Assembly: GCA_005223085.1 (NCBI GenBank)
Contig: NJBP01000003.1
Span: forward strand, 2,406-66,405
Source: Candidatus Aerophobetes bacterium Ae_b3b
Lineage (GTDB): Bacteria > Aerophobota > Aerophobia > Aerophobales > AE-B3A
Direction: 5' to 3'
Length of the DNA: 64,000 nucleotides
Under the pieces are notes generated by a model. The model had not been told where the DNA came from and did no database searches. It saw nothing but the letters and a program-made list of their open reading frames with translations. The number at the start of each line of letters is the position of its first letter. The stretch's first letter is position 1. The position numbers and the translations under genes are program-made. Of the stretch, positions 26,944-60,676 are shown piece by piece.

Positions 26944-26972
26944 ACTATACCACCATTCTCGAAATTTGTCAA
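26944..26972 (-). promoter_or_regulatory. Near-consensus sigma-70-type promoter (TTGACA-17-TATAGT) reading into GntR' and the dpp operon
   Basis: Reverse complement of 26967-26972 is TTGACA, and of 26944-26949 is TATAGT. The spacer is 17 nt. The -35 coincides with the left edge of repeat R. Confidence 0.5.
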
Positions 26973-28021: not shown

Positions 28022-28044
28022 CTTCTATCCTCCAACGCCATCCG

Positions 28045-28767: not shown

Positions 28768-28832
28768 ACTTCCGTCCTCCCTTATTAATGGTTGCTAGCC
28801 GAGAGCCAACCCCAATTCCTGGTACTCCTAGC

Positions 28833-29654: not shown

Positions 29655-29681
29655 TTTCTGATCTCCGCAACAGAAGATGGT

Positions 29682-30557: not shown

Positions 30558-31666
30558 TCTTCAAGCCTTTCATTCTTATTTGCACCTATAACCACCACAC
30601 CTGCTGGTTCCCAGCAAATTCTGACTTTGGACCCTTCGGTAAAACGGTTCTCGCTGGTGTTAATCGCATAGATATCGATCTGTTGATTACCCACCACCAG
30701 GGCTTTGTGCCTCAGTAGCGCTCCCTCGTAACTGCTTTGCAGAATTGAACCTTCAAAGCTGTTCACAGTTGAAGTGGTGCTAGCTGCGCTTTCCATGACT
30801 GAGATAGCCTCAGGCTTAACAAAAACATTGACAGGCTGACCTACTTCGAAAGTTCTGTTTCTTATAGTCGCGGTCACCTCGAAGCCTACGGTAAGTCTGA
30901 CTTGGACCTGATTGTCGTCTATGGTGGTCACGGTACCCTCGAAGCGGTTTGTCAGGCCCATGAAGTCCGCTACAAACATAGAAGCCGGGCTTTCATAGAT
31001 TTCTTGCGGGGTACCAATTTGTTCCACTCTACCAGCGTTTAGGACCAGAACATGGTCAGACAGTGATAGGGCCTCACTTTGGTCGTGAGTGACATAGATT
31101 GTTGTGGTTGTAAGATCTTCTTGAAAACTTCTCAGCCAGAATTTCATCTCTTCCCGGAGCTTCTTATCGAGGGCGCTAAGGGGTTCATCCAGAAGGAGGA
31201 CTTTGGGGTTTGGCGCTACTGCCCGAGCCAAAGCCACCCTTTGCTGTTCGCCTCCGCTCAACTGGTGAGGGTACTTCTTTTCATATCCCAGCAAACCTAC
31301 CCGATCTAACAGATCATGGACCTTAGTTTGAACGTGGCTCTCGCTCAGGTGTCTTAGCTTAAGCCCGAAGGCTACATTGTCGTAAACACTGAGGTGCGGG
31401 AATATCGCGTAGTTCTGAAATACCAACCCCAGACCCCGTTGCTCAGGTGCAAGACCTGTAATCTCCTTTCCATCCAGCAAAATTGAACCGTTGGCCGGAG
31501 TCGTTAGGCCTGCGATCATTCGCAGTATCGTGGTCTTGCCAGAACCACTTGGGCCGACCAGCGAAAAGAACTCACCGCTTTTTATGGTAACGTTGACTTG
31601 AGAAACAACCGTCAGTTTGCCATACCTCTTTGTGAGATCGACCAGTTGCAATGCTGAAGTTAACAT
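30554..31666 (-). CDS. Pot-type ABC transporter ATPase (PotA-like, with C-terminal TOBE-like domain)
   Basis: GPSGSGKTT, LSGGEQQRVALARA and LLDEPLSALD. 370 aa. Confidence 0.85.
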   Translation of the reverse strand: MLTSALQLVDLTKRYGKLTVVSQVNVTIKSGEFFSLVGPSGSGKTTILRMIAGLTTPANGSILLDGKEITGLAPEQRGLGLVFQNYAIFPHLSVYDNVAFGLKLRHLSESHVQTKVHDLLDRVGLLGYEKKYPHQLSGGEQQRVALARAVAPNPKVLLLDEPLSALDKKLREEMKFWLRSFQEDLTTTTIYVTHDQSEALSLSDHVLVLNAGRVEQIGTPQEIYESPASMFVADFMGLTNRFEGTVTTIDDNQVQVRLTVGFEVTATIRNRTFEVGQPVNVFVKPEAISVMESAASTTSTVNSFEGSILQSSYEGALLRHKALVVGNQQIDIYAINTSENRFTEGSKVRICWEPAGVVVIGANKNERLEE

Positions 31667-31722
31667 CTATTCCCCTATTACACCCAAATCATTCTGGATA
31701 CATAACCTCGTGCTGATAGTTT

Positions 31723-31763
31723 TCTGAAGAGACCAGGGGAGAGCGCTAGTTGATTCCCGACAC
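31723..31763 (-). terminator. Stem-loop just downstream of the SBP gene (9-bp stem CCAGGGGAG/CTCCCCTGG); candidate intra-operon attenuator
   Basis: Inverted repeat read directly. It sits about 23 nt after the SBP stop. The loop is 23 nt and the U-tract is weak. Confidence 0.35.
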
Positions 31764-31785
31764 CCTCCCCTGGTAATGACCACAG

Positions 31786-32880
31786 TTAGTGCCCAGCGAA
31801 AATGGATTCTGCCATCCTCACAATCTCGTCTTCATTCTCCCTGTACCAGGTGTACTCAGGAACCCAGATTTCCGCCACCGCTTCCGCAGTGTTCTTGACG
31901 CCCCATTTTGCCAACTTCTCCGGGACCCTTACGTATTTGTTGGTGGAGCGCAATCCTAAGCTGACTTCAGCTAATTCATACTGCCACCTTGCACTCAGGG
32001 CGCGGTTTATGAAGGCGTAGGCTAGCTTTTTCTCCAGGGCAGAGACATGCTTGGAGACAGTGAAAGTTTGGCTGAGGATTGCCCGGTAGCCTTTGGGCCA
32101 CCATACTACTCCTAGCGGCAATCCTGCCTCAAGCATCGTATAAAGCTCGCCGTCCCATTGTTCACCTATGACAACTTCGCCCTTTTCAAGGAGCATTTGC
32201 ATTGTGCCCGTGAAATCAACGATCTTCATAGGCATAGAGTCCTTCATTGCCTTCTCCATGGTGGCAACGTCGTGCGGGCCTTCGCCAAAAACCTGTGCGG
32301 CAGTCATCCACAAAGGCGGAAAGAGACCGTTCGAGGTAATATAACTGGCACGCATTCCATCAAATCTATCCTCCCAAAAATCGGCGAACTCTGCCGGATG
32401 AGGTTCTTCGACAAGGTCCTTTCGATAAACGAAACAATGCTCACCAAACCCCCATGTTACGCCTGTCCCACTTAGCCAAGCGAAGTCCCAAATCTGATCT
32501 GCATTAGGGATGTTAGCCTTGATTTCTTCAATATCAACGAAGAAATCACCTGCGTTTGCAGCTTTACTCATCTGAAAGAGATTCCAGTTGCTTACGGCGT
32601 GCGGTGGGTTCTTTTCTCCTCCTGCTACATACTTGGGGAACCATGGCCAGCCACCGTCGTAGCTGACCTTGCAATTGAAGTCCTTTTCAAATTCCGGGAT
32701 AAACTTCTCCATCCATTGTTCTTTCCAAAATCCCCCCCAATTCCCAAGGCGAAACGTTGCTCCTCCTGCATCAAAAGTTCCCCCGGTGTAGAGTATTTCC
32801 GGCTCTGCAGCTTGCCCAACGTAACTGAAACCCATTAGCAACCCTAACAACGCAACCAATAAGATACTAGATCGTTTCAT
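31786..32880 (-). CDS. ABC substrate-binding protein, PotD/PotF-like (family 1)
   Basis: Signal peptide (MKRSSILLVALLGLLMGFSYVGQA). 364 aa. First gene of the Pot-type operon. Confidence 0.7.
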   Translation of the reverse strand: MKRSSILLVALLGLLMGFSYVGQAAEPEILYTGGTFDAGGATFRLGNWGGFWKEQWMEKFIPEFEKDFNCKVSYDGGWPWFPKYVAGGEKNPPHAVSNWNLFQMSKAANAGDFFVDIEEIKANIPNADQIWDFAWLSGTGVTWGFGEHCFVYRKDLVEEPHPAEFADFWEDRFDGMRASYITSNGLFPPLWMTAAQVFGEGPHDVATMEKAMKDSMPMKIVDFTGTMQMLLEKGEVVIGEQWDGELYTMLEAGLPLGVVWWPKGYRAILSQTFTVSKHVSALEKKLAYAFINRALSARWQYELAEVSLGLRSTNKYVRVPEKLAKWGVKNTAEAVAEIWVPEYTWYRENEDEIVRMAESIFAGH

Positions 32881-33185
32881 CTCAATTCTCCTCCTTTCTT
32901 AATTGGCAAAGTTTCTCGACAGTTTTCTCTATAGATATCACCTCCCACATTTTTGAATTAAGGATGATGCATAGCCGTAGCGTAGTGCAAATCCTGGTTT
33001 GTTTATCGTCCTCGTCCATGGGATACGACGTTTTACCAATCGGTGTCTCGGTCGGAGATCACGGCCAAAACTCACGGGTTACCTATTGCAGAGAGCTTCT
33101 CTCCTCCGTTTCCCCTTAAACGAGGTTAGCTATTCCTTTGACCAAGGAATCTCCGCTCCCGAATTCAAACATCACCCTTGTTCAC

Positions 33186-33214
33186 ATTATCTACCTTGAT
33201 TCTCCTCTTGTCAA
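33186..33214 (-). promoter_or_regulatory. Near-consensus promoter (TTGACA-17-GATAAT) about 300 nt upstream of the Pot-type SBP start
   Basis: Reverse complement of 33209-33214 is TTGACA, and of 33186-33191 is GATAAT. The spacer is 17 nt. Confidence 0.5.
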
Positions 33215-33259
33215 ATGCTCCGAATGTCGACTAAAGAACTACCAGAATGACCTTTATCT

Positions 33260-34393: not shown

Positions 34394-34472
34394 ACCATCC
34401 TCCTTTGCCCAATAGTGTCAAACGTAAATATTCAGTGAGGAACGTTCCATGTTGTTGACTGCAAAGAGCAGA

Positions 34473-34556
34473 GCGGGTAGCCGCACCCTTTAGGGTGCGT
34501 ATAAACGCAGGCTAAGATTTTGCGCAGGCTGAAGCCTGCGGCTACCAGCGGCTACC
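34473..34556. repeat. REP-like nested-palindrome element
   Basis: The outer stem GGTAGCCGC (34476-34484) / GCGGCTACC (34538-34546) encloses two hairpins: CGCACCC-ttta-GGGTGCG (34482-34499) and CGCAGGC-tgaa-GCCTGCG (34523-34540). GCGGCTACC is directly repeated at 34548-34556. Confidence 0.55.
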
Positions 34557-34635
34557 GAGATTGCTTCGCTGGCAATGGGATTCACTAAGTATTTACCCTT
34601 CCTCCCAGTTCAGTTGGCGCAGTCTCCGCATTGGT

Positions 34636-42869: not shown

Positions 42870-43916
42870 TTAATGACCGCAGGCTTTTGCTAACTCTACT
42901 AAATCCGGATGTACAACTTCACCTTCTTCAGTTAGGGGCTCCTCATCACATGATACCGAACACGCCAAACATATGCCGTCTATGTGGGAAGCTGCCACCC
43001 TAGGTTTACCACCCGAATACATTGGGCCCTGATACCCAAAACCCCATTCCGTACTTCCCCATATCCTTTCATCCTCCGTAGCAGTGTACCCGAGCTTTGC
43101 ATTTGGATTAAAACCGTAACAAACATGTGCCACTAAGTACATAGTGGGATCGTTTAATTTTTCAAACCATTTTTTAACAATTTCCGCCTCCTTTCCACCT
43201 CGTATTTCTTTTATTCTTCCCTTTTTAACTTCGTATATAACTGGCTTTGAGACCACCCCTATATCTGCTTTACCACCACCTGAAATAGCACCATCAAAGA
43301 CTAGTGTTCCATTGATAGTTTCTTCTCTAGGCGCCCATCCAATCTGTCCTGTTAGAAAATGTCCCCCCGGTTTGTCAGCAATGTGCTCGTCAGCAAAAGG
43401 GCGATGGGGATCATTTTCAAATTCTATGTTTGTCCCCGCAGCATTAACAATCTTCATTTTTTTTGCACGCTTTGTTATCTCAACAACTTTTTCCTGAAAG
43501 GCTATTTGAGCTTCAATATCTACTTCTCCTATACAGCGAATCAACTGATCGGTTGATAAACCTCCAAGCATAAGATTTCGAGTACGGCCGTTTGTTACCG
43601 CCCGTTCCCAGGGTGTACTATATAGTAACCATTGGTTATTAAGTTCTATCCACGCATCTGCTTCAGGACATGCTGCTATAAGCGGAGCAGGCAAATATGG
43701 GTCAGTTGCCTTTCCATACCCCTTTGGTGTGGAATGCCAAGCCACCATCACCTTGGCACCAAGTGCCTCTCCCGCTTTGGCCATTTCCTCTGCCACCCTG
43801 AAGTCACTGATAGAGTCAATAGTAATGAGGAGATTTTCACCTTCTTTTACTCTAATGATTTCCTTAACTGTTTTATAGGCCGCTTTGAATAGTTCCAGAT
43901 CACTTATGGTTGGCAT
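42870..43916 (-). CDS. M29 (aminopeptidase T) / NicX-like superfamily protein, paralog 1
   Basis: 348 aa. The overall pattern resembles the thermophilic-metalloprotease / 2,5-dihydroxypyridine-dioxygenase fold (GQIGWAPRE, EDERIWGSTEWGFGYQGP, ASHIDGIC). Family assignment is from memory, not a search. Confidence 0.5.
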   Translation of the reverse strand: MPTISDLELFKAAYKTVKEIIRVKEGENLLITIDSISDFRVAEEMAKAGEALGAKVMVAWHSTPKGYGKATDPYLPAPLIAACPEADAWIELNNQWLLYSTPWERAVTNGRTRNLMLGGLSTDQLIRCIGEVDIEAQIAFQEKVVEITKRAKKMKIVNAAGTNIEFENDPHRPFADEHIADKPGGHFLTGQIGWAPREETINGTLVFDGAISGGGKADIGVVSKPVIYEVKKGRIKEIRGGKEAEIVKKWFEKLNDPTMYLVAHVCYGFNPNAKLGYTATEDERIWGSTEWGFGYQGPMYSGGKPRVAASHIDGICLACSVSCDEEPLTEEGEVVHPDLVELAKACGH

Positions 43917-47347: not shown

Positions 47348-48667
47348 TTACCGCGCTCTCTCATATTTTTCCCCTGATTCAAGTTTTTTGAATCCTTTCA
47401 ATTCATCGAGTATTTCCAGCATAGTACTCTCAGCCGTTTCGTACACTCTCACCAATTCTGGATGGAGACCAAAGGTAGGATCCAGATCAGAAGAACCAGG
47501 TACGAACTTAATAATCGCACCCTTGGCGCCTTTATTGTTTCCATATCCGTCCAATGGTCCCATTGGACTAATACATACGTTTTGGAACGATGTTTTTTGC
47601 ATCAAATCAATAATCACATCGGGATCTTTGGTCCCCGCCTTTTCATAAACTTCTTTAATCCAGTAGATCACTTGATAGTAATTATTAGTGTATGCCTCAG
47701 GGTAAGCTTTTTCACCGTATTTAGCTTTCCATTTCTTTACAAAGTCTTTCCAGGCTTCGCTCGTTGGATCATGATCGGCAAGGGTATATATATTTTCTGC
47801 TCCATACTCTCCGGTTATCTTTGCACCCCCCATGTTTGAGTAGGTTGTACCATAGAGCATTATCCGGGGCATGGCGCCAGCATCCCGCAACTGTTTAGCC
47901 ACGCTAAACCATCCAGCTCCAGTATATGGACAGAAAATCGCATCCGGTTTTTCCTCTTTAATGATTAATACCTCAGTGCTGTAATCTGTTTTGTCAAGTG
48001 GAGTATAGATGACCGGGCTTATCTCAAAAGGTTTACCGTTCTTTTCCCAATAGGCTTTTAAGCCCATACCATTACTGTATCCCCAATCGTAATCCCCTCC
48101 TATGAGTGCTACCTTTTTTGCTCCCATTTCCTCAAAGAACCTGCCCGCAAGCTGACCGGCAAAATAATCAGCATAACCATAGTAGACTACCCATTTGCTC
48201 ACTGGAACTTCTCCAGGAGGAAGATACTTACTCATACTGAGGTGCCCTCCCACAAAGCATGGGATTTTATATTTTGGAGCTTCCACACATAGCGGGCTAA
48301 TGGTAGTTTCAAGAGCTGCTCCTCCCATTACATCGGGTTTCCAAGTTCCCACTTCTCTGCTGAGCTTTCTCTTAAGTACGGAAGGTTTTGTCTCCGTATC
48401 TATAACCTTATATTCAATCCCTGAAAAGCCTTTTATACCCTCTCTATTAATCTCTTCCACAGCCAATTTCATAGCTCTATCATAAGCCGGACCTATGTTA
48501 CCTGCAGCCCCTGAAAAAGCAACAGTACCCAGAATCCGTATAGGTTCTTCCTTCTTTTCTGCTGATGCTACCAAAATGCTGGAGACAAGTCCAACAGCCA
48601 GCAATACCCCAATGCCCCCTACGATCATCAGCTTCAGCCTGCTTTTTTTAAATATTTTCCTTAACAT
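47348..48667 (-). CDS. Liv-type periplasmic substrate-binding protein (type I, Leu/Ile/Val-binding-like)
   Basis: N-terminal anchor and 439 aa. First gene of the Liv-type operon. Confidence 0.7.
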   Translation of the reverse strand: MLRKIFKKSRLKLMIVGGIGVLLAVGLVSSILVASAEKKEEPIRILGTVAFSGAAGNIGPAYDRAMKLAVEEINREGIKGFSGIEYKVIDTETKPSVLKRKLSREVGTWKPDVMGGAALETTISPLCVEAPKYKIPCFVGGHLSMSKYLPPGEVPVSKWVVYYGYADYFAGQLAGRFFEEMGAKKVALIGGDYDWGYSNGMGLKAYWEKNGKPFEISPVIYTPLDKTDYSTEVLIIKEEKPDAIFCPYTGAGWFSVAKQLRDAGAMPRIMLYGTTYSNMGGAKITGEYGAENIYTLADHDPTSEAWKDFVKKWKAKYGEKAYPEAYTNNYYQVIYWIKEVYEKAGTKDPDVIIDLMQKTSFQNVCISPMGPLDGYGNNKGAKGAIIKFVPGSSDLDPTFGLHPELVRVYETAESTMLEILDELKGFKKLESGEKYERAR

Positions 48668-48973
48668 ATGCTCCCTCCCTTGGTCAATAATTCTTTAATA
48701 TCTTTTTGACATGGTTCATTTTTCTGGGCAAAGCTCCCGAAAGAGAAGTTAATCTTTCAACACTTTTCTCTTCGGAAAGCCCTGCTTGGCCTTGAGCTAG
48801 TGGCCTGCCTACCTTCTCACCTCCCTCCAGCCTCATTTTTACTTTTTCCTTGCTAAGGACCTACCTTCCTGCTTTTTCTTTACCTATTCAAGACTTTCCA
48901 ACTTACCATTTTAATTTCGTCTTCCCCCGCAAATCTATCACTCACACCTTCACATTACCCCAAAATCGCTCAT

Positions 48974-50017
48974 CTATTTTCCCATTGCCTGTGCAATTTC
49001 GCTTAGTTCAGGATGCACTACTTTCCCTTCTTTGAGTAACAACTCATCATCTACCCATACAGTAGAATTCAAGCATATCCCGTCAGCATGAGATACAGCA
49101 TCTCCCAGACTACCTTCAAACATGGGTCCCTGATAACCATTTCCCCATTCAGTAGATCCCCATACACGTTCATCCTCAGTACATAACCCTGTGAGTATTG
49201 CTCCCGGATTGAACCCGTAACATATATGAGCCAAATTATACATATTCGGATCACCGAGCTTTTTCAGCCAATTACTCATCTTTTTGGCTTCATCCTGACC
49301 CTTAACTTCAACAATTCTCCCTTCTTTTATGGTCAATTCAATCGGATGAGCAAGGATTCCGAGATCAGCTTCCCCGCCACCAGAAAATGATCCATCAAAT
49401 ACTATAACCCCATTAATACTTTCTTCACGAGGGGCCCATCCAATCTGGCCTACCAGAAAATGTGGTCCCGGTACATCTGCTCGCAGCTCATTGGTAATGG
49501 GGCGCTCGTGCACATTCTCAAAAGAAACGTCAGTACCTGCTGGTGTCGTAACACGCATCTTGGAAGCTTTTTTCGTGAGCTCGACCACCTTATTCTGAAA
49601 TTTTTCTTGCAAATCCATATCAAGTTTGGCAATACATCTGGTAATGCGTTCTGGATCTAATCCTCCTAGAAAAAGGTACCGCGTTCTCTCGTTGGACATC
49701 GCTTCTATCCACGGAGTGGAATATAGGAGCCACTGGTTATTGAATTCTATCCATACATCTGCTGCTGGTATGGCTTTTTTAAGAGATTCCGGTAACTGCG
49801 GATCAGCCACTTTGCCATAACCATTGGGCGTTGTATGCCACGCTACCATTACTTTCCCGCCAGCAGCTTCAGCTGCCTTGGCAACTTCTACTACTGGTTT
49901 AAAATACATTGCTGAATCTACTGTTAGTATTACGGATTCTCCTTTTTTGATTCTACACATTTCATGAGCTACTATATAGCTCGCTTTTCCTAATTCTAAT
50001 TCAAACCTCTCTGGCAT
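48974..50017 (-). CDS. M29 / NicX-like superfamily protein, paralog 2
   Basis: 347 aa. It is colinear with 42870-43916 and by eye more than half of positions are identical (KVMVAWH.TP.GYGK, NNQWLLYSTPW, GQIGWAPRE, EDER.WGSTEWG.GYQGPM). Confidence 0.5.
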   Translation of the reverse strand: MPERFELELGKASYIVAHEMCRIKKGESVILTVDSAMYFKPVVEVAKAAEAAGGKVMVAWHTTPNGYGKVADPQLPESLKKAIPAADVWIEFNNQWLLYSTPWIEAMSNERTRYLFLGGLDPERITRCIAKLDMDLQEKFQNKVVELTKKASKMRVTTPAGTDVSFENVHERPITNELRADVPGPHFLVGQIGWAPREESINGVIVFDGSFSGGGEADLGILAHPIELTIKEGRIVEVKGQDEAKKMSNWLKKLGDPNMYNLAHICYGFNPGAILTGLCTEDERVWGSTEWGNGYQGPMFEGSLGDAVSHADGICLNSTVWVDDELLLKEGKVVHPELSEIAQAMGK

Positions 50018-50037
50018 CTTCTCTTCCTCCTTCTTTT

Positions 50038-50739
50038 TTAAAGCATTTCTTTCTCTGAGGGCGCCTCATACGCAATTGTGCTCGTCTTAAGACCCATACT
50101 CACATATATTTCTGCCAACCTCAATGAGGCCACTGCCGGATCAACTACCGGTACTCCTAATTTCTGTTGTAATTTTTTTGCTAAAGATGACATGCCGGTA
50201 CACCCAAGAACGATACCTTCCGTCCCATCGTTTTCTATAGCTATTTTAGCTTCTGCCAAGATAGCCTTAAATGCCTTTTCCTCATCTTTTAGGTCCAATA
50301 CAGGAATATTAGCAAACCGTACCGAGGCCACCCTGCTTCCAAAACCATACTTGTTTATGTTTTCTCTGATTTCATCGGCAGTACTTTTTAATACGGTGAC
50401 TACCGAAAACTTCCTGCACAATCCGAGAGCCAGAAGATAGCTCGCTTCACCTGCACTGGTGACAGGTATTGTAACTGCTTCGCGGCAGGCTCTTACAACA
50501 GTATCCATGGCACAATCTAAACTTACCGCATCATAACCTTCTTTCTCTGCCTTTTTGACTTCTTCGATAATATATGGGGCTGCAAGAGCCTCATCATATG
50601 CTGATTCAATAGATACTGGTCCATGACTTAAACATACAACTTCTACTTCATTTCCAGGTGAGGCTGCCTTTCTTCGCTCTTCAACTTGGCTATCTCTAAA
50701 TTTAATCGATGAGTTTGGTATTACTATCTTAACTCTCAT
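50038..50739 (-). CDS. Asp/Glu/hydantoin racemase family protein, copy 2
   Basis: GPVSIES, Cys regions LDCAMD and LGCTGM, and PVVDPA. It is distantly related to copy 1, roughly a third of positions by eye. Confidence 0.7.
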   Translation of the reverse strand: MRVKIVIPNSSIKFRDSQVEERRKAASPGNEVEVVCLSHGPVSIESAYDEALAAPYIIEEVKKAEKEGYDAVSLDCAMDTVVRACREAVTIPVTSAGEASYLLALGLCRKFSVVTVLKSTADEIRENINKYGFGSRVASVRFANIPVLDLKDEEKAFKAILAEAKIAIENDGTEGIVLGCTGMSSLAKKLQQKLGVPVVDPAVASLRLAEIYVSMGLKTSTIAYEAPSEKEML

Positions 50740-50786
50740 ATCTGATTATTTTGCATCCTCCTTTTTTGATTATTGTTCCTGTGAGA

Positions 50787-50814
50787 ATAGTAGAACATAT
50801 GTATAATCTGTCAA
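50787..50814 (-). promoter_or_regulatory. Candidate promoter (TTGACA-16-TACTAT) reading into racemase-2 and the long co-directional array
   Basis: Reverse complement of 50809-50814 is TTGACA, and of 50787-50792 is TACTAT. The -35 again coincides with the left edge of repeat R (copy 2). Confidence 0.4.
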
Positions 50815-50950
50815 GAAAAAAATTCTTTTGGCTACAATGATACTATTGACTTTTTATTAGATTTTAGAGAACTCCGAAAAACTCCTATTTGATTTTAAAA
50901 GTGGAGGGAACCATCTGCCAAATTACTATTTTTCGGAACGTTATCCCCAA
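50808..50950. repeat. Repeat R, copy 2
   Basis: See copy 1 at 26966-27112. Confidence 0.75.
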
Positions 50951-51006
50951 CTTCCCACTGTTTCTGTAAATTCCATGAAGGTAGGAAATTCACGGGTAGA
51001 GCAAGC
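50934..51006 (-). pseudogene. Second remnant of the lplA-like gene, with ~290-bp internal deletion and 5' truncation
   Basis: 50934-50950 matches 27096-27112. 50958-51006 matches about 27403-27465 (ggaaattca..ggtagagcaagc). The sequence between these matches in copy 1 is absent here. Confidence 0.6.
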
Positions 51007-51402
51007 AAAAGATTAGAGCAAGAGGGGGCAAAAAAGGTTATTCCCCTTCCGGTAAGTGGTCCCTTTCACACCTCCTTTATGAGACGCGCAGCTTTAAAAT
51101 TCAGTCAAGAATTAGATCGCATCGCTTTCTCTGATCCCTGCTGCAAAGTTCTCACCAATGCCTTTGCCCGCTATGCCTTAAGCGGCGAAGAAATTAAAAG
51201 CGCCCTTCGGATGCAGATGGATCATCCCGTTCTCTGGGAGGATTCTATGAGGAAACTACTCACTGATGGAATCGATCTATTCATTGAAGTAGGACCAGGA
51301 GAGGTTCTCAAGGGGCTCCTGCGAAGAATTGACAGGAGAGCATCGGTTTTGGGAATGGAAAATTCCGAGGATCTAGAGAGAATTGAGGACTACGGTAGCT
51401 AA
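51000..51402 (+). pseudogene. fabD 3' fragment (copy of nt 15756-16158, up to and including the stop codon)
   Basis: 403 nt against 403 nt with no indel. About 88% identity by hand count over the last 327 nt (~40 mismatches). It is in frame throughout (..[54 protein letters not shown]..). About 18 of ~34 altered codons are synonymous. Confidence 0.9.
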
Positions 51403-51448
51403 ATTTTATTTACAATTTGGGATTAAAGTAGACTAAAAAGGAGCCTTC

Positions 51449-51485
51449 CCAGGGTATTTAGCTTATGTCAGGCTAAATACCCTGG
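51449..51485. terminator. Perfect 14-bp stem-loop (CCAGGGTATTTAGC-9 nt-GCTAAATACCCTGG) between the convergent fabD' fragment and potD
   Basis: Read directly. No long U-tract on either side, so it is a hairpin of uncertain terminator efficiency. Confidence 0.45.
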
Positions 51486-51578: not shown

Positions 51579-52682
51579 CTATGGGGCTGCTTTTACCTCT
51601 TGCCACATTTCTATCCAATCTGCCATAGTAGCGTATTTGCCAGGCTCAAGTGGCAAAGGACCATTGGGTTTACTCTCTGCAAAAAACTCTACCAGAGTAT
51701 CATAGGGATACAGACTTTTTTCCTCCTCACTTAACAACGGCTTAACGTCAGTAGTTACGGCACCCCAATAATTCTTTACCACACCCACATGCTGAACGTA
51801 AGGTGTTAGCACCTCATTAATCAGTGCATATGCAGCTTCTGGGTTAGGGGCATTGACGGGGATGCAATAGCTGTCAATAAAAACAAGGGTACCTTCCTTC
51901 GGGATATTCCACTCTAAATTATACCCTTCTTCTTTCGCCAGTTTTGCTATCATGAGATCCCCACTAGTAGCCTGTAGATCAACTTCTCCGCTTATAAGCA
52001 TCGATTTTGCTTCTCCCTTGGAAATCACTATTGCTCTTGCGCCCTTTTTCAGTTTGATCAGGAAATCCTTAGCCTTAGCAAATTCCTCCGGCGTCAAAAG
52101 ACTCGGGTCACCCTTCTTTCCAGTGGCTTTTGCTGCCTGTGTTATCGCCCCCAGCGCCTCATCCTGCATAATATATCTACCTTTCCATTCAGGTTTAAGT
52201 AAATCCCAGTAGGACTCTAGAGGACCCACTTTATCTGCGTTATAGACGACATCGTTTTTGCCAAAGTTTATTGGTACAGCCCATACTTTCCCTTCGAAGT
52301 TAAACATCTCCATTGCGTCCAGGATTCCGGGATCAAGATTTTTATAGTTTGGTATTTTGCTTACGTCAATCGGTTGCAGTAGATTGTTCACCACTAGTTG
52401 TTCAATATTCGCTTGATTCGGAGTTACAATATCATACTCGGCTCCTGCTTTCAGTTTTGCAAATATCTCATCGTTACTGGCTATGTAAGTCGGATCAATT
52501 GTCACTCCATATTTTTCTTTAAACTCTTTGAATGCTTCAGTGAATTCATAACCTTCCCAACCAAGTATTCTGATCGACCCACTTATCTTCTTTTCTGCAA
52601 AGGATACGCCTAAAGCGAAACTACTAACCAGCACACATAGAGTCAAAGAAGTGATAATCAAGAGTTTTCTTTTCTTTAACAT
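51579..52682 (-). CDS. PotD-like polyamine-type ABC substrate-binding protein
   Basis: Signal anchor and 367 aa, with PotD/PotF-like features (ILGWEGY, YDIVTP). Confidence 0.75.
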   Translation of the reverse strand: MLKKRKLLIITSLTLCVLVSSFALGVSFAEKKISGSIRILGWEGYEFTEAFKEFKEKYGVTIDPTYIASNDEIFAKLKAGAEYDIVTPNQANIEQLVVNNLLQPIDVSKIPNYKNLDPGILDAMEMFNFEGKVWAVPINFGKNDVVYNADKVGPLESYWDLLKPEWKGRYIMQDEALGAITQAAKATGKKGDPSLLTPEEFAKAKDFLIKLKKGARAIVISKGEAKSMLISGEVDLQATSGDLMIAKLAKEEGYNLEWNIPKEGTLVFIDSYCIPVNAPNPEAAYALINEVLTPYVQHVGVVKNYWGAVTTDVKPLLSEEEKSLYPYDTLVEFFAESKPNGPLPLEPGKYATMADWIEMWQEVKAAP

Positions 52683-52976
52683 TGGTAACCTCCTCGATTA
52701 TACTACAAAACTTGTAACTCAAGACGGTTTAAACTCCCACGGAAATTTCCCGGGAGAAATGCCAACTATCCAACACCTCTCCTCAGACAACTTCCATTCC
52801 CAAGCCGAAGCGGCCTACCCGCATTCTCACCCCCTCCTGGCCTTTTATTTCTAGCTTTTACTTTCTTGAAGAAAGATTTTGCCAATATTTTATCGATCCT
52901 TTTTCGTCAAAAAACTACCGTTCTCATCATAGCTTCACGTCCTCTTGCATAGTCCAAAGAAGCCGATAAACGAGGA

Positions 52977-53777
52977 TTAATACAGAGTTCTCAATTTCGC
53001 GATTCTATTCGCTATTATGATTAACGTGATGGAAATAGCTAAAACCATAGTTGCAATTACGTTTACTGTGGGAGAAACTCCTCTTCTTAACATTCCCCAT
53101 ATCACTATAGGAAGGGTATTTTTCCTCCCTACCACAAAAAAAGTAACGAGAAATTCATCAAAAGAGAGGCCAAAACTAAGCATCATAGTTCCAATTAATG
53201 AAGGTCTTATTAGAGGAAAGGTCACATACCTGAATGTTTGTAGTGCATTTGCCCCAAGATCCTTAGCTGCTTCCTCAATCGTAATGTCAAATTTATCAAG
53301 CCGCGCATTCATAATTAGTACCACAAATGGTGTAACAAATACTACGTGACTTAACGTAACCGTCAAAAGTGATCTAGAAATTCCCAATACAGATGCGAAA
53401 AAAGATAATAGTGAAATGCCAAGAATAATGGCCGGCAGAGTGATTGGTAGAAGGACAATGTATGACATCATTTCTTTAAACCTGAACCGATACCTTGTTA
53501 AAGCAAATGAGGCAAGCACTCCTATGAAAACCGATACACATGAAACCATAAGCCCCACATAAACGCTATTTATTAGTGCCGAAATAAAGATTTCATTTCT
53601 TAATACCTCTCGATACCATTTTGTGGTGAAACCCCTCATTGGGAATACAGTGGCAGAAGTAGGGTTGAAAGAGAAAAGCACAATAATTACTATTGGCAAC
53701 AATAGAAAGATCATAATTAACACAGTAGATAAATCTAGTACTCCGAATCTAAAACTCTTGCCTCTTGTTGTCCTCAC
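52977..53777 (-). CDS. Pot-type ABC permease (PotC-like)
   Basis: EAA loop EEAAKDLGANALQTFRYVTFPLI. Confidence 0.8.
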   Translation of the reverse strand: MRTTRGKSFRFGVLDLSTVLIMIFLLLPIVIIVLFSFNPTSATVFPMRGFTTKWYREVLRNEIFISALINSVYVGLMVSCVSVFIGVLASFALTRYRFRFKEMMSYIVLLPITLPAIILGISLLSFFASVLGISRSLLTVTLSHVVFVTPFVVLIMNARLDKFDITIEEAAKDLGANALQTFRYVTFPLIRPSLIGTMMLSFGLSFDEFLVTFFVVGRKNTLPIVIWGMLRRGVSPTVNVIATMVLAISITLIIIANRIAKLRTLY

Positions 53778-53784
53778 TTAAAGA

Positions 53785-54633
53785 TTACCTCCTAAGCTTC
53801 AGAATCTTGAGTATCCAAATCAAACAGTACACTAGAAGAGCCAGTAGAAATAAGGTGAAGTAAGAAAGAGCAGACCCAAATGGCCAGTTATAGCGCATTC
53901 CAAACTGATCCGCTATAATCTTTCCTATCATCATTCCAGTTGTTCCACCAACAAGTTGTGGAGTAACATAATCTCCCGCGGAAAGTATAAAACTAAAAAT
54001 AAAGCCAGTTACCACCCCCGACATGCTCAAAGGGAGAGTGACCTTGTAAAAAGCCTCAAAATTGTTTGCCCCCAGGTCCTTAGCAGCTTCAATTAACTCT
54101 GGTTTGACATTCTGTAGGGAAGAAAATATTGGGAGAATGGTAAAGGGGACAAATATAAATACCAGCGTTATTATCACTGCTGTTGGACTATACAAAAGAA
54201 ATGAGAGTGGTTCTTTTGTTAAGCCTATGTACTGTAAGATCTGATTGATTAGTCCCTGTCTCCCAAGAATAGTCTTCCAAGCATAAATCCTAACCAGGTA
54301 ACTGCTAAAGAGTGAGATCAAAATCAAATATAAAACAAAATCCTGCATTTTTTTGTATTTGAAAGTTAGTGAGTAGGCAACTGGATAGCTCACAACCACA
54401 CAGATTATGGCAGCTATAAAGGCTATGCGAATTGACCTTAGTATAATAATAAGGTAGAGTTTTTTTGAAAAAATGGCCCAGTAATTCTCCAGCGTAAACG
54501 TTGGCACAAGTCCTCTTGCTGTTGTTAACCAAAAACTATAAGTGAGCAAAATACCCAGAGGAATAAAAAAGAACAAGATATAATAAACCCAGAAAGGCAA
54601 CAGCAAAAATATGTGTATTTTCCCCTTTCTCAT
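53785..54633 (-). CDS. Pot-type ABC permease (PotB-like)
   Basis: EAA loop IEAAKDLGANNFEAFYKVTLPLS. Confidence 0.8.
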   Translation of the reverse strand: MRKGKIHIFLLLPFWVYYILFFFIPLGILLTYSFWLTTARGLVPTFTLENYWAIFSKKLYLIIILRSIRIAFIAAIICVVVSYPVAYSLTFKYKKMQDFVLYLILISLFSSYLVRIYAWKTILGRQGLINQILQYIGLTKEPLSFLLYSPTAVIITLVFIFVPFTILPIFSSLQNVKPELIEAAKDLGANNFEAFYKVTLPLSMSGVVTGFIFSFILSAGDYVTPQLVGGTTGMMIGKIIADQFGMRYNWPFGSALSYFTLFLLALLVYCLIWILKILKLRR

Positions 54634-54674
54634 AACAAAAAACAGCCTTCCTTTTCAGAAAAACTAACTTGCAC

Positions 54675-55769
54675 TCATTCCGGGAAAACGTTAAGACTTT
54701 CTCTTGTAAAGGCTAAAGTGACTCCATCACCAATTTTGATGCTTCTAGCATTGCTTTCGTCTGTTATTCTGTCTTCGGCTACCATAGTAATATTTTCCGA
54801 TATCCGTAGGTAATACTTGACAACAGAACCAAAAAATACCGCATCTACCATTTTTCCCCTAATCTGGTTACCAAATGATTTGCCCTCTAACTCACCAGTT
54901 ATCCTGAGCTTTTCTGGTCTTATTGCCAAAGTAACTGGATCTCCCGTTTTTACATTAATGGTTCTATTCGCAAACAGCTCCAATCCATCAACGGAAATTA
55001 CCAAGCAGTCACTGTTGACCTTAACAACCGTTCCTTTTAAGAGATTGTTTTCTCCAACGAACATTGCCGAAAATTTAGAATTCGGGTGGTTATATATCCT
55101 CTTTGGGGTACCAACCTGCATTATTTCTCCCTCATTCATTAATACAATTCTGTCTGACATTACTAGAGCTTCTTCTTGATCATGTGTCACATAGATAAAA
55201 GTTATTCTGAGCTTCTCTTGAATATTTTTGAGTTCAATTTGCATCTGCTTCCTTATCTTCAAATCCAGTGCCCCGAGCGGCTCATCAAGCAATAAGACTT
55301 TTGGTTCATTTATGAGAGCCCGAGCGAGAGCCACTCTTTGACACTGCCCACCCGAAAGCTGGTTGGGTCCTCTTGTTTCAAAACCTTCCAATTGGACTAA
55401 CTGGAGCATTTTCCTGACTTTCCTTGCCACTTCTTCCTTAGGTTTTTTCTTTAGAAATTGACTGAATGCAATATTTTCGAAAACACTCATATGTGGAAAA
55501 AGAGCATAACTTTGAAAAACCATATTCATTGTCCTTCTATAAGGCGGAAGATCAATAATACTCTCGCCATTCATTAAAACATCACCTGAATCAAGTGTTT
55601 CAAAACCGGCAATAATTCGCAGTAGAGTAGTTTTTCCACATCCACTTGGGCCGAGTAAACAAACAAATTCCCCATCTTTTACTTGAAGACTAAAATTTTT
55701 CACAGCCACCACTTGCCCAAAACTCCGAGAAGCACCTTTGATTACTAATAGTGTATTTTCGTATGACAT
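54675..55769 (-). CDS. Pot-type ABC ATPase (PotA-like)
   Basis: GPSGCGKTT, LSGGQCQRVALARA and LLDEPLGALD, with a C-terminal TOBE-like region. Confidence 0.85.
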   Translation of the reverse strand: MSYENTLLVIKGASRSFGQVVAVKNFSLQVKDGEFVCLLGPSGCGKTTLLRIIAGFETLDSGDVLMNGESIIDLPPYRRTMNMVFQSYALFPHMSVFENIAFSQFLKKKPKEEVARKVRKMLQLVQLEGFETRGPNQLSGGQCQRVALARALINEPKVLLLDEPLGALDLKIRKQMQIELKNIQEKLRITFIYVTHDQEEALVMSDRIVLMNEGEIMQVGTPKRIYNHPNSKFSAMFVGENNLLKGTVVKVNSDCLVISVDGLELFANRTINVKTGDPVTLAIRPEKLRITGELEGKSFGNQIRGKMVDAVFFGSVVKYYLRISENITMVAEDRITDESNARSIKIGDGVTLAFTRESLNVFPE

Positions 55770-56822: not shown

Positions 56823-57073
56823 AATTACCTCCCCTACTATAATCTTCACCGGACCGTGGGTGCAGATTTCCCACATGAAAGCTCTTCATCGATATTTCCC
56901 TGTCTCAAGGCTAGGCATAGGCTAAGTAATAGATCTTTGGCTAACAAAAGCGACTATACGTGGTATTATGAAAAGACTCGCCTCTCTTCTTCGCACCAGC
57001 CTTTTCTCTACAGCAAAAAAAAGACAAGAGAGAAGAGAGGCCCCGAGAGCAAGGAGTGACAGTGACTACATTG

Positions 57074-57946
57074 CTACTTTACAGTACCCATAGTTAGTCC
57101 TCGAACAAAGTATTTCCTGGCCAAAATGCCTAGGGCAAAGAGAGGCAACATAGAAATTGTTGAAATAGCTCCTACTTCACCCCACATAATCATTTGCTGG
57201 CCAAACAAAGATGGTAAGAAAACAGAAAGAGGAATTACTCGTCGCCTAGCAAGAATGAGCGCATAAGGGTACTCCTGCCAGCTAAAGATAAAACAAAACA
57301 TCGCGGTTACAATCAACCCTGGCGCGGCTAATGGTAAGACGACTCTCCAAAAAACTCCTACCTCAGAACATCCGTCAATTCTGGCACTTTCTTGCGCCTC
57401 TTGGGGAATTTCCCGAAAGAATCCCCTCATCATCCATACGGTAAAAGGTAGATTAAAAACAAGGTGCATTAAGATTATAGCAAGATACGTATCAATTATA
57501 CGGAGTTCTTTAAAGAAAAGAAATACTGGAAAAACCACAGCAATAGGTGGGAGAACTCGTAAGGTTAGAAGTCCAAAAGGAAAGCTTTTGCCCCCGGTTT
57601 TCCAGCGCGTGATGCTGTAGGCCGCCAAGGAACCTATTACGACAACACAAGCGGTACTCAAGCCAGCAATTATTAAACTATCCTTAAAGGACTTATATCC
57701 GTTCAATTCTTGAACCCCTATGTAGTGAGCAAAGGTTAGCTCTTTGGGTAACCAGATTGGCGGACTGTGCAGAATGTCAGAAGGAAACTTAACCGAAGTT
57801 AATACAGTCCATACTATAGGGAAGAGAGCAAATGCTACTGCTAGGCCGACGATGACGTAGCGAGCTATCTTCACCGCCTTCAAGTTTTTCCGTTTCTGAA
57901 TACGTTTTGGCTCTTTATTAGTGTATATATGTCTTTTATCACCCAT
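57074..57946 (-). CDS. Carbohydrate (CUT1) ABC permease, MalG-like
   Basis: EAA loop EAQESARIDGCSEVGVFWRVVLPLA. Confidence 0.8.
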   Translation of the reverse strand: MGDKRHIYTNKEPKRIQKRKNLKAVKIARYVIVGLAVAFALFPIVWTVLTSVKFPSDILHSPPIWLPKELTFAHYIGVQELNGYKSFKDSLIIAGLSTACVVVIGSLAAYSITRWKTGGKSFPFGLLTLRVLPPIAVVFPVFLFFKELRIIDTYLAIILMHLVFNLPFTVWMMRGFFREIPQEAQESARIDGCSEVGVFWRVVLPLAAPGLIVTAMFCFIFSWQEYPYALILARRRVIPLSVFLPSLFGQQMIMWGEVGAISTISMLPLFALGILARKYFVRGLTMGTVK

Positions 57947-57948
57947 AC

Positions 57949-58830
57949 CTATCCCCCTCGTTCTATTCTTAACAGTCTAACTGCAACAACAAGGAAACAA
58001 CCGACCGCAACTAGAAGTACAATGTTAGCAGCAGATGCGTACCCCATACGAAAGTACTGAAATCCTATGCGATACAGGTACAAAGAGATTGTTTCAGTAG
58101 AGGTTCCTGGTGCTCCTTGAGTAAGAGCAACGATTATGTCAAAGATTTTGAAAGACTCCAAACCTCGAAAGAGCAGCGCCACCCCGATTACGGGGCGCAT
58201 TAAGGGGAGAGTGATGCTTCTGAATCGAGCCCAAGGAGAAGCTCCGTCTATCGCTGCTGCCTCGTATATTTCAGGAGAAAGAGATGTTAGTCCAGCGAGC
58301 AATATCAGGAAAATAAAAGGGGTCCACTCCCACAAATCCGTAACGATAATACTTATGAAGGCAGTTGGAGTTTTTGCTAACCAGAGAATATTAATTTCTT
58401 TTCCTAGAAGCCCAGTGAGAATATGATTAATAGGCCCGTATTGGTCGTTCCATAACAACTTCCAGGTATATCCGACTACTATGGGAAGCATCATCACTGG
58501 TAATACTACCATTACGAGCGCAGCGTTTCTCCCTTTAAACTCTTCCACGAATATGAGAGCAAGTGCAAGTCCCAGCATAAACTCCAGACCCAGTGCTGCA
58601 GACAAGATAATAACTGTTGTCCCGAGAGCACTAAAATATCTTCCGTCTTGAAACACATTCAGGTAGTTCTGGATTCCTATGAAAGGTCTTCCCATAATCT
58701 GATAATCCCATTGAAAGAAACTGAGTACAAAGGCATAGATAAAGGGAAAAATAGTTACAAAGGACAGTATACCCATGGTGGGGAGCACAAAAAGCAACGG
58801 CAACGTCTTTTTACTCTTAAGTCGTATCAT
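57949..58830 (-). CDS. Carbohydrate (CUT1) ABC permease, MalF-like
   Basis: EAA loop YEAAAIDGASPWARFRSITLPLM. Confidence 0.8.
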   Translation of the reverse strand: MIRLKSKKTLPLLFVLPTMGILSFVTIFPFIYAFVLSFFQWDYQIMGRPFIGIQNYLNVFQDGRYFSALGTTVIILSAALGLEFMLGLALALIFVEEFKGRNAALVMVVLPVMMLPIVVGYTWKLLWNDQYGPINHILTGLLGKEINILWLAKTPTAFISIIVTDLWEWTPFIFLILLAGLTSLSPEIYEAAAIDGASPWARFRSITLPLMRPVIGVALLFRGLESFKIFDIIVALTQGAPGTSTETISLYLYRIGFQYFRMGYASAANIVLLVAVGCFLVVAVRLLRIERGG

Positions 58831-58876
58831 CTTCTTTTTCCCATAGTCTTAGTGGACAAAAAAAGTTTTGGAGTAT

Positions 58877-58902
58877 CCCGGTCCTCCTGTGAGAGGACCG
58901 GG
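58877..58902 (-). terminator. 10-bp GC-rich hairpin (CCCGGTCCTC/GAGGACCGGG) after the sugar SBP gene; candidate attenuator
   Basis: Read directly. On the - strand a T-run (cttttttt) begins about 13 nt after the stem. Confidence 0.4.
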
Positions 58903-58922
58903 ATTGACGTCCGATCCTGCTA

Positions 58923-60359
58923 CTACGGACTCTGCCCTACAGATCTTAGCCATTCAATGTAGAACTTCCTCTGAGTCTCTCTACCCAATCGGTTGGTGAT
59001 TTTCTCCCACTTGTCAGCCGCTTCGTCTAAAGCTGCCTGGACATCTTTTCCGCCATATGCGGCAGTCATAGCCTCCTCCAGAGCACGGAAGTATTCGAAC
59101 GCTGCGGGAATAGCCAACTCCCATACGCCGTGCATAGCGGATTCTTTTAAAGTATCCAGGTATTCACCAGCATTTCCCCAGGCATTTCGATAAAGGGGAG
59201 CTTCAAAATGGGATATTCTCCAGGGATCACAAAGCGCAAAGGGAAGCATAACTGTCTGAAGACTGATTTCAGGACTGCTCGCCCATTGCGCAAAGAGATA
59301 GGCTGCTTCCTTGTTCTTGCTCCCCGAATTCACACCCAGGGAGAAACAACCAGCATGAGTTGATCTTCCCAGGGGCATAGGTCCGTAACCAACGTTTCCG
59401 GCAATTTCTGTCTTGGGAACCCATGCGAGCTGCTTGGTGTAGGTCCCATAGCCCTCTGACCATCGGCCAATTGGAGGCCAGGTAATTATCATGGCCACTT
59501 TCCCAGACAACCAAGCACTTAGAACATCCATGAAATCCCATGTCTCTATGCCTGGAGGCATAACTTTGTTTTGCTCTACCATTTCCGTTAGAGTTCTTAC
59601 TCCGATAGCGTTGTTGATCTCAGGTTCCATCGTTTCGGGATTGAAGTATCTTCCTCCGTAAGCCACAAAAGGAGCCTCAAACCAGGTATAAGTCTGCATT
59701 GCTCTTTGTATCGCCGCACCATAAATGTCTGGAGCATACTTCGCGGTGAAAAATGTAGCTATCTCCTGAAATTCCCTCCAAGTTTGTGGGCATCGCAGCT
59801 CATACCCATATTGGGACTCAAATTCCGCCTTATTCTGGGAATCCTCAAACAGATCTTTTCTATAAAAGAGAGTGAGTATATCTAGGTCGATGGGCAAACC
59901 GTAGAACGTACCCCCCCACATCATCAGGTTTTTGCGGACAATAGGCGGAATGTCTTCAAGATCTTCCTTGTTCATGTACTTCTCAACGTAACGGTCTAAG
60001 GGTTCCATCAAGCCAGCAGCTATGAAGTCAGGTACCCACAAAGGGGAGTATTGGACAATATCGTACGCTCCTGTTGCCGCCAGGTGTTCCGCAATCTGCT
60101 TGTCATGAAGAGCGTAGTAGTCCATACCCACTACCTCTACCTTCATGCCGGTTGCCTTCTCCCACTGAGGAGCCAAAGCAAGAGGACCTTGCATGAACAG
60201 TCCTGATTCAGTGGGAAAAACAATAGTTTTGCCAGCATATTTTTTCCCTTCTTCTATAGCCACCTTCATAGAGCTACGCTGAGCAAAAGCTGCTCCTGCA
60301 CCCAACACAAGAACAATACAGACAAAAACCACCCACGCATTTTTCTTGTTCAATTTCAT
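58923..60359 (-). CDS. Carbohydrate ABC substrate-binding protein (family 1)
   Basis: Signal peptide (..GAGAAFA) and 478 aa. First gene of the CUT1-type operon. Confidence 0.75.
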   Translation of the reverse strand: MKLNKKNAWVVFVCIVLVLGAGAAFAQRSSMKVAIEEGKKYAGKTIVFPTESGLFMQGPLALAPQWEKATGMKVEVVGMDYYALHDKQIAEHLAATGAYDIVQYSPLWVPDFIAAGLMEPLDRYVEKYMNKEDLEDIPPIVRKNLMMWGGTFYGLPIDLDILTLFYRKDLFEDSQNKAEFESQYGYELRCPQTWREFQEIATFFTAKYAPDIYGAAIQRAMQTYTWFEAPFVAYGGRYFNPETMEPEINNAIGVRTLTEMVEQNKVMPPGIETWDFMDVLSAWLSGKVAMIITWPPIGRWSEGYGTYTKQLAWVPKTEIAGNVGYGPMPLGRSTHAGCFSLGVNSGSKNKEAAYLFAQWASSPEISLQTVMLPFALCDPWRISHFEAPLYRNAWGNAGEYLDTLKESAMHGVWELAIPAAFEYFRALEEAMTAAYGGKDVQAALDEAADKWEKITNRLGRETQRKFYIEWLRSVGQSP

Positions 60360-60676
60360 TAGCTTTCCTCCTTCTTACGTAATATCCCTTTGTGTTCTAA
60401 AACAACCATCGTCAACCTCTTACTGTGCCATTCTGAGCATGATATGAGTGGATAAGCCATGCTATCTTTGACGATCTTGACCGTATCTATACTTTTTCCC
60501 TGTCACGACATACCTCCGTCAGGGTAAGGTGCGATCTCTCACCTCCTTCTATGCGGACTTTATACCTAGGGTCTTGTGCTTGTTAAGCAGTATCACCCCC
60601 TCTCGCTTCGATTTTTGACCCATCCTTTCACTTTAGAGAAGATTATTGGAGTCTGTTTTAATAAGAGGCTCATTCA

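Follow-up and report, generated by a model that had tools for sequence, protein, structure and literature searches.

The window analysed here, a stretch of 64,000 nucleotides (nt) from contig NJBP01000003.1 of Candidatus Aerophobetes bacterium Ae_b3b, contains an intact fabD gene encoding malonyl-CoA:acyl carrier protein transacylase and, 35 kb downstream, a second copy of the 3' end of that gene, designated fabD' (51000-51402, plus strand). It is fairly likely that fabD' is the non-functional remnant of a second fabD, located in a scar produced when versions of an interval bounded by fabD and lplA (lipoate-protein ligase) were joined head to tail by illegitimate recombination. The evidence consists of the observed anatomy of the joints, the ancestral adjacency of fabD and lplA, the recurrence of the scar and the hypervariability of the site. 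In this lineage fabD and lplA are convergent neighbours bounding a hypervariable interval. In the proposed mechanism one copy of the interval, ending in lplA, would have been placed head to tail before another copy starting inside fabD, the lplA|fabD joint having formed by illegitimate recombination at short microhomology. Joining of this kind would have occurred at least twice, the second event giving an lplA'|gyrA' joint and a later deletion at microhomology connecting gyrA to kbl, with the outcome of three stacked interval versions (V1, V2 and V3), each carrying different operons for uptake and catabolism of amino acids and peptides.

Intact fabD (15235-16158, plus strand) encodes 307 residues identical to TKJ46185.1 and matched Pfam PF00698 with an E value of 4.5e-31. 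Comparison of the window with itself by BLAST paired the 3' end of this resident gene (15756-16158, plus strand) with 51000-51402 at an E value of 1e-151. Alignment showed the copies to be in direct orientation, each 403 nt long and ending in TAA, with no insertions or deletions and 44 mismatches (89.3% identity), the longest common exact run being 45 nt. These results confirm the recurrence, orientation, length and common stop codon reported in an earlier note on this DNA. Within the last 327 nt, for which that note gave a hand-counted identity of about 88%, 40 mismatches were found and the computed identity was 87.8%. Half of the 38 changed codons were synonymous (19 synonymous, 19 non-synonymous), again as stated before. 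The ratio of non-synonymous to synonymous substitution rates (dN/dS), a calculation the note had proposed, was 0.26 between the copies by the Nei-Gojobori method as compared with 0.14-0.22 for intact genes of relatives over the same codons, consistent with the view that the divergence resembles that of functional alleles. Since fabD' starts at codon 175 and comprises codons 175-307 plus the stop codon, it lacks the GHSLG active-site serine region (residues ~89-93 of intact FabD); half of the large subdomain is also missing, leaving fabD' without the complete acyltransferase domain (PF00698) expected of a functional FabD. The 134-residue translation of fabD' gave no Pfam match at E <= 0.001. 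An open reading frame (ORF) inside it, 51079-51402, is deposited as CEE35_00980, a hypothetical protein of 107 residues. Directly after its stop codon fabD' has kept nine nucleotides, ATTTTATTT (51403-51411), which follow the intact fabD stop codon in 9 of 11 relatives and have been lost by the resident copy; homology to the intact loci of relatives stops at this point. The relatives are the 11 loci with an intact fabD, L001-L003 and L100-L107, assembled from sequences of 85-91% amino-acid identity plus L100.

The displaced fragment was found to be the right half of a composite scar of ~590 nt (50821-51411), in which a non-coding segment designated X and remnants of lplA precede fabD codons 175-307 and ATTTTATTT. 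The left part of the scar is copy 2 of X (50821-50934), 81.6% identical by self-BLAST to copy 1 (26971-27084), which lies just 3' of lplA sequence and is found in contig L099 between lplA and a GntR remnant. Two short pieces of lplA, together designated lplA'' (50927-51005, minus strand), aligned to 27089-27112 and 27411-27467. The first (50927-50950) represents the last codons and stop codon of lplA and the second (50960-51005) an internal portion, the ~298 nt between them having been deleted; by alignment, 50821-51016 equals the X and lplA sequence of 26971-27467 minus those ~298 nt. The fabD-specific part begins at ~51006, and 50999-51005 is common to lplA and fabD. The joint falls at AGCAAGC, a 7-nt exact microhomology within an imperfect patch of ~24 nt: the lplA parent reads GGTAGAGCAAGC|TAAAGAATAGG, the fabD parent GGTAGAAATAGCAAGC|AAAAGATTAGA and the product GGTAGAGCAAGC|AAAAGATTAGA. 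An intermediate form is represented by contig L097, in which 354 nt of lplA are kept at the same joint. Microhomology with both parents identifiable, as expected of an illegitimate head-to-tail joint, was found here and at the gyrA'|kbl' joint of a second scar (AACCT). The use of X as a neutral yardstick of divergence was considered and rejected, as X of the window is ~15% diverged from contigs otherwise 97.6% identical and is therefore itself mosaic.

The arrangement from which the joint derives was revealed by L100, a JGI contig 97.3% identical to window positions 6793-16158, in which gyrB-gyrA-fabD is followed after 190 nt by a convergent, intact lplA of 243 codons. The 190-nt spacer opens with TAA-ATTTTATTT and continues into D1, the name given here to a conserved spacer of ~70 nt after ATTTTATTT in most relatives. 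Since fabD and lplA converge 190 nt apart in L100, the lplA|fabD joint is of the head-to-tail, duplication type and not an attachment site; the scar places the 3' part of lplA before the 3' part of fabD on the same strands, opposite to the order in L100. An intact lplA is also present in L099, preceded by gcvPA-gcvPB. L100, the closest relative, lacks the DNA that separates the fabD copies of the window, in support of the earlier view that it is extra. The accompanying prediction of an empty site, with fabD followed by ACAATTTGGG, a hairpin (51449-51485) and a convergent pot-like operon, did not hold: none of the 11 relatives continued past fabD into the sequence from 51412 onward, and the sole compact site was that of L100.

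At least nine different contents were found 3' of intact fabD among the 11 relatives. The tdh joint of the window itself was present in L101 and L106, independent contigs 97.5-97.7% identical to the window, and ATTTTATTT-D1-lplA in L100. In L105 the gene is followed by ATTTTATTT, a miniature inverted-repeat transposable element (MITE)-like sequence, D1 and tdh-kbl-racemase, and in L107 by ATTTTATTT-D1 and tdh-kbl-S-Me-THD-Opp. Nitroreductase-like and M20 genes homologous to window ~40.4-42.6 kb follow fabD in L104 and L001, a different ATP-binding cassette (ABC) transporter in L002, aminotransferase, flavin adenine dinucleotide (FAD) oxidase and proline racemase genes in L003, and genes for TIM-barrel, alcohol dehydrogenase (ADH) and short-chain dehydrogenase/reductase (SDR) proteins in L103. 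Of all the loci, only L102 had mobility genes at this site, namely two for DDE transposases directly downstream of fabD (11163-14146). The order fabD then tdh/kbl, which the earlier note had named as speaking against insertion into fabD, was thus encountered in L101, L105, L106 and L107, for the fabD-proximal parts of the region. Breakpoints lay 0, 9, ~23, ~45-60 or >70 nt past the fabD stop codon, a scatter that reflects trimming by selection on fabD and not one core site.

Two further observations concern this locus in the relatives. The MITE-like element is ~175 nt long with 15-nt terminal inverted repeats (GTAAATATTCAGTGA...TCACTAAGTATTTAC); copies were located in the window (34422-34598), L105 (5565-5741, 13642-13819 and 15118-15320), L100 (12107-12254) and L102 (1357-1504). 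One copy directly follows ATTTTATTT of fabD in L105, and in L100 and L102 the element interrupts the site equivalent to window 6793/6799. In addition, the two ends of contig L108 (JREQ01000465.1) overlap exactly over 88 nt and a fabD(16053)|gyrB(11240) joint lies within the contig, features which, as judged from the assembled sequence, mark it as a circular or tandemly repeated 4.8-kb gyrB'-gyrA-fabD' unit and another head-to-tail product at the locus.

The 35 kb between the fabD copies is divided into two blocks by a second scar of the same type, lplA'|gyrA'|kbl' (26971-28033), that begins with copy 1 of X. Self-comparison matched 26971-27084 to 50821-50934 and 27411-27467 to 50960-51016, the latter overlapping the start of fabD'. 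Next to X is lplA' (27095-27556, minus strand), a lipoate-protein ligase gene without its 5' part, the ORF of which (27095-27550) matched profile positions 50-152 of 200 of Pfam PF21948; intact homologues have 243 residues. It is followed by gyrA' (27560-27763, plus strand), an internal 204-nt fragment corresponding to 14102-14306 of gyrA with 92.7% identity and one 1-nt deletion, and by kbl' (27755-28033, minus strand), which comprises 89 codons from the start of the kbl-like gene and the 12 nt preceding them (18464-18742), with 92.5% identity. The gyrA' and kbl' fragments meet at (G)ATAAACCT, where five nucleotides (AACCT) match exactly and 9 of 11 positions agree, and the chimeric 127-residue kbl'-gyrA' ORF was also found in two independent JGI contigs, P0131 and P0132. 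The kbl' remnant is explained by L105, in which an intact kbl immediately precedes the next gene and the order gyrA-fabD-tdh-kbl-racemase-V2 is intact and collinear. Assignment of kbl' to an L105-type allele was rejected, its identity being 90.3% to L105 versus 93.2% to kbl of the window. On the other side of the scar, homology to L099 (99.6% identical to window 24243-27556, with intact lplA) ends at 27556, where gyrA' begins. Mismatches to L099 bunch within ~40 nt of the lplA'|gyrA' joint (27520-27556), the preceding 3.3 kb being 99.6% identical; either error-prone repair at this joint or the presence of a different allele could account for the cluster.

The fabD scar was present in 8 independent metagenome contigs (L091-L097 are described here) in three flank combinations. 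Both flanks are common to the window in L092-L094 (JGI), which are 96-97.6% identical to it. L095 (ENA) contains the scar with a 192-nt insert bounded by inverted repeats beside X. L096, from an NCBI metagenome-assembled genome, has the left flank in common (NicX-like gene and racemase), whereas its right flank consists of D1 followed by a ComEC remnant and a gene for an inositol phosphatase. Conversely, L091 has the right flank in common, including the hairpin, and yajC-surA on the left. In L097, with the longer lplA remnant, a 17-nt slip deletion was found and D1 follows the stop codon. The insert seen in L095 belongs to a second kind of element, 150-190 nt long with imperfect inverted repeats (TATCTCGGGACTCTTCCCC...GGGGAAAGTCCCTCGATA), that borders X on the left in three relatives (L095 159-350; L096 2580-2728; L091 ~2385-2562, equivalent to window 50818/50831) and is absent from the window; in L091 the left end of this element is exactly the point from which homology to the other contigs starts.

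Several observations weigh against the head-to-tail explanation. The interiors of the stacked units are not mutual copies, which excludes simple tandem duplication, and the route by which they were stacked we infer. The lplA'|gyrA' joint shows little clear microhomology, and X, treated here as the flank of lplA, is absent from L100. In a neighbour-joining tree the fragments were not monophyletic and intact L100 nested among them. No single independent contig spans both fabD copies, and the intact lplA-gcvP that the model predicts beyond V3 falls outside the window. Candidate routes are tandem duplication in situ with subsequent allelic replacement, integration of related-lineage DNA by homologous recombination on one side combined with an illegitimate joint, and Campbell-type entry of a circle. 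The second of these, with input from a related lineage, is favoured, since all fragments differ by 7-11% from the resident gene and the substitutions appear filtered by selection. Once formed, the two direct fabD repeats could permit deletion of V1 and V2 by RecA.

Of the proposal in the earlier note, that DNA inserted into fabD with restoration of the gene end, the direct repeats stand; the single 35-kb cargo does not, owing to the second scar, nor does an element attachment site, the left edge being fused to lplA. A recombinase-free form of that proposal is possible although unlikely: a circularised segment with its own fabD 3' end (15756 to the stop codon, cargo, X and part of lplA) would have entered fabD by a single RecA-dependent, Campbell-type crossover, restoring fabD and displacing the native end to its position beside the pot operon. 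The direct 403-nt repeats bracketing the cargo agree with such an event, and the displaced copy has kept the ancestral ATTTTATTT and fewer private changes than the resident copy (8 versus 15, the latter the most in a first five-sequence comparison). Intact FabD proteins with a C-terminus like that of copy 2 exist (P0135 and P0136, 92.5% identity over 107 residues), the junction of the circle would equal the observed lplA|fabD joint, and the L108 unit illustrates head-to-tail products at this locus. However, the required fabD-hairpin-pot site was absent from the 11 relatives, the cargo is composite with the second scar inside it, and a crossover would be inefficient at 89% identity with no exact run above 45 nt. 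Moreover, the circle needs the same illegitimate lplA|fabD event, so that this route differs from head-to-tail joining of interval versions in the integration step only.

The history of the fragments was examined over the 403-nt region, in which all alleles are roughly equidistant (86-95% identity). To account for the lack of monophyly noted above, fragments must later have recombined with intact alleles. The window differs from L100 or L002 by ~3% in gyrA, a value that rises to ~8% at the end of fabD. Four derived changes found only in fragments, at positions 15780, 15817, 16057 and 16120, are common to the fragment lineages and point to a single origin. We read this, from the pattern of substitutions, as one origin of the fabD joint followed by mosaic recombination between fragments and functional alleles. 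A conversion tract was considered for the near-identical first 118 nt of the two fabD copies and rejected, since over this stretch copy 2 equals L100 and all four differences occur in copy 1 alone. A more speculative and rather doubtful extension is that fabD' and lplA' act as portable homology handles by which host recombination would stack, exchange and pop out metabolic modules of 10-25 kb without a dedicated recombinase. If so, either selection or repeated conversion from functional fabD alleles would keep the handles intact, accounting for the open ORF and for a dN/dS below 1 across ~14% divergence; the modules would be exchanged at the fabD/lplA boundary, which shows a terminus-like switch of gene orientation and GC skew.

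A classical island or prophage placed in the fabD 3' end by an integrase that was since lost is very improbable. Duplication of a 3' end that restores the gene is found here as direct repeats of 403 nt at 89.3% identity, the GC content of the cargo varies from 38 to 52%, and transposases follow fabD in one relative, L102. Nevertheless, a Pfam scan of all ORFs of at least 120 residues between 10.9 and 56.9 kb revealed no integrase, resolvase or transposase domains, in agreement with the earlier note regarding integrases; excisionase, phage and conjugation genes were likewise missing from the Pfam scans, and no relatives were found among viral contigs. The left boundary is the remnant of a native neighbour, lplA, and not element DNA, breakpoints after fabD are scattered without a single core, and the cargo consists entirely of ordinary metabolic operons co-oriented with the flank. 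Three of the four defining features of an integrase-borne island, namely recombinase, empty site and single core, are therefore lacking.

Still less credence attaches to the idea that the 107-codon ORF (51079-51402) or its transcript is functional and selected, for instance as an antisense RNA, a recombination handle or a small protein. None of the 8 scar-bearing contigs has a disrupted ORF, the two indels seen (L091 and L097) being located before its ATG, and dN/dS between fragments is 0.22-0.55. Changes found only in fragments, after removal of alignment artefacts in L097, number 18 non-synonymous to 12 synonymous compared with a neutral expectation of ~3:1. Rare changes in intact genes, however, show the same ratio (42:27), and most differences between fragments are alleles also found in intact genes, so that recombination explains the pattern. 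The open frame is not statistically surprising because only ~1.3 nonsense changes are expected among the 30 fragment-specific changes; a first expectation of ~5 nonsense mutations was rejected as inflated, most of the divergence being shared with intact alleles. The ORF has no Shine-Dalgarno-like sequence before its ATG (CACCTCCTTTATG), no plus-strand promoter-like site was found, and the product would be without the catalytic serine region, half of the large subdomain and any Pfam match. Copy 2 of X contains two promoter-like hexamer pairs on the minus strand, not above chance expectation, and an Rfam search of the window gave nothing at the gathering threshold and only chance-level matches at the scar.

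Least probable of all is a chimera assembled from strains that occur together. In its favour, the window comes from a metagenome-assembled genome, its identity to relatives is mosaic, and ten independent pot-operon contigs, 99.3-99.96% identical, all end inside fabD', as expected of a repeat common to co-occurring alleles. Against it, fabD|tdh is reproduced in L101 and L106, lplA''|fabD' with both flanks in L092-L094 and kbl'|gyrA' in P0131 and P0132, the 5-9 nt overlaps at the joints are far below assembler k-mer sizes, and the longest exact run between the fabD copies is only 45 nt. Misassembly is thus unlikely; no sign of the strain-level misassembly that the earlier note had named as refuting its reading was found, each junction being reproduced in independent assemblies.

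The setting of the scars in the window is as follows. The plus-strand block accA-gyrB-gyrA-fabD ends with fabD; large ORFs are on the plus strand up to this gene and all on the minus strand from 16218 to 64000, where the genes form operons for uptake and catabolism of amino acids and peptides. As described before, intact fabD runs into a convergent tdh-like gene encoding a zinc-dependent alcohol dehydrogenase, the 59-nt gap between the two stop codons (16159-16217) being a spacer that replaces ATTTTATTT and D1. Cumulative GC skew peaks and the sign of the skew changes at this 16158/16218 switch of orientation, which looks like a replication terminus, a resemblance inseparable here from coding-strand bias. 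No dif-like site (CATAATRTAYATTATGTHAA, <=3 mismatches) was found, and no tRNA genes are present in the window.

Block V1 (16218-26527, minus strand; 16.2-27.1 kb in the model) contains, according to Pfam, tdh-like and kbl-like genes, a pyridoxal-phosphate enzyme, an M55 D-aminopeptidase and an Opp-type peptide ABC transporter. A short minus-strand ORF at ~26650-26860, between the Opp binding-protein gene and X, encodes only the N-terminus of a GntR-type winged-helix protein, is called a 96-residue GntR gene in L099 and is probably another truncated gene. Block V2 (28045-50739, minus strand; 28.0-50.8 kb in the model) contains a racemase, two ABC transporters, an S-Me-THD-like protein, an Opp-type transporter and a nitroreductase-like protein, followed by an M20 peptidase, two NicX-like paralogues, a branched-chain amino-acid ABC transporter and a racemase, also assigned with Pfam. 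L105 matches 27755-33225 at 98.5% and L096 matches 48240-50818 at 95.4%. The NicX-like paralogues (42870-43916 and 48974-50017) have 56% amino-acid identity, and the two Asp/Glu/hydantoin racemase genes (28045-28767 and 50038-50739) are deposited as 'HupH'. Block V3, from 51.4 kb in the model, starts with the pot-like ABC transporter (51579-55769, minus strand; binding protein, two permeases and ATPase by Pfam). Exact-protein look-ups returned a record for the pot binding protein but none for the products of fabD, the tdh-like gene, the racemase gene, the NicX-like gene or the 107-codon ORF. The blocks V1, V2 and V3 have no mutual nucleotide homology outside the scars and are not simple tandem copies. 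Farther on, L081-L083 lack an ABC-transporter block (56835-60598), position 56834 being followed immediately by 60599 in these contigs; their flank past 60599 is 89-92% identical versus 99.3-99.7% before 56834, indicating module-level variation among near-identical strains.

The hairpin between fabD' and V3 (51449-51485) has a stem of 14-16 bp (z = -3.3 to -3.7), which bears out the perfect 14-bp stem of the earlier note. The function proposed there, the native terminator of fabD, is not supported, the hairpin being downstream of none of the intact fabD genes examined. On the minus strand the extended stem is directly followed by UUUUU. Because this U-run abuts the stem on the minus strand, the hairpin is by its sequence probably the terminator of the convergent pot-like operon, a better fit than a fabD terminator, although it was not called in a consensus terminator scan.

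These results correct the annotation of CEE35_00980 (107 residues), CEE35_00865 (151 residues) and CEE35_00870 (127 residues), which are gene remnants and not hypothetical proteins, and the scar accounts for the breaks that short-read assemblies of these populations show here. The region is a readable record of an uncultured deep-sediment lineage enlarging its repertoire for amino-acid and peptide uptake by microhomology stacking without the machinery of mobile elements. The kind of event is already known, the value of the present case being that of a clear natural example in a poorly known phylum.

Among known systems, prophages e14 and phage 21 restore the end of icd on insertion in Escherichia coli. 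As there, the fabD locus has an intact gene 3' end within diverged direct repeats and an in-frame displaced fragment at the far end. The prophages, however, have an integrase, a defined attachment core and phage genes, whereas here no recombinase was found, the inner boundary is the remnant of a native neighbour joined by microhomology, and two metabolic-operon blocks are stacked. The head-to-tail novel joints, in an order opposite to the reference and with 5-9 nt of microhomology, resemble the join points of bacterial tandem duplications and microhomology-mediated illegitimate recombination. The differences in cargo between the units and the 7-11% divergence of the flanking fragments mean that either no simple recent duplication took place or allelic replacement came after it. 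Homology-facilitated illegitimate recombination occurs during natural transformation of Acinetobacter baylyi and Streptococcus pneumoniae. The fabD locus would share with it a one-sided anchor (gyrA-fabD), a joint with a few bases of microhomology, a donor from a related lineage and the addition of DNA beside the anchor, and both the fragment divergence and the dN/dS of 0.26 appear compatible with a diverged donor; those experiments usually delete recipient DNA, whereas a duplicated anchor was left here. Finally, the locus resembles chromosomal hotspots and regions of genome plasticity in that conserved flanks (fabD and lplA) enclose accessory content that differs in each relative, with small mobile repeats and, in one relative, insertion-sequence transposases at the site. 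In contrast to the usual replacement at such hotspots, a single genome here carries the alternative versions stacked one behind the other and separated by scars that can still be read.

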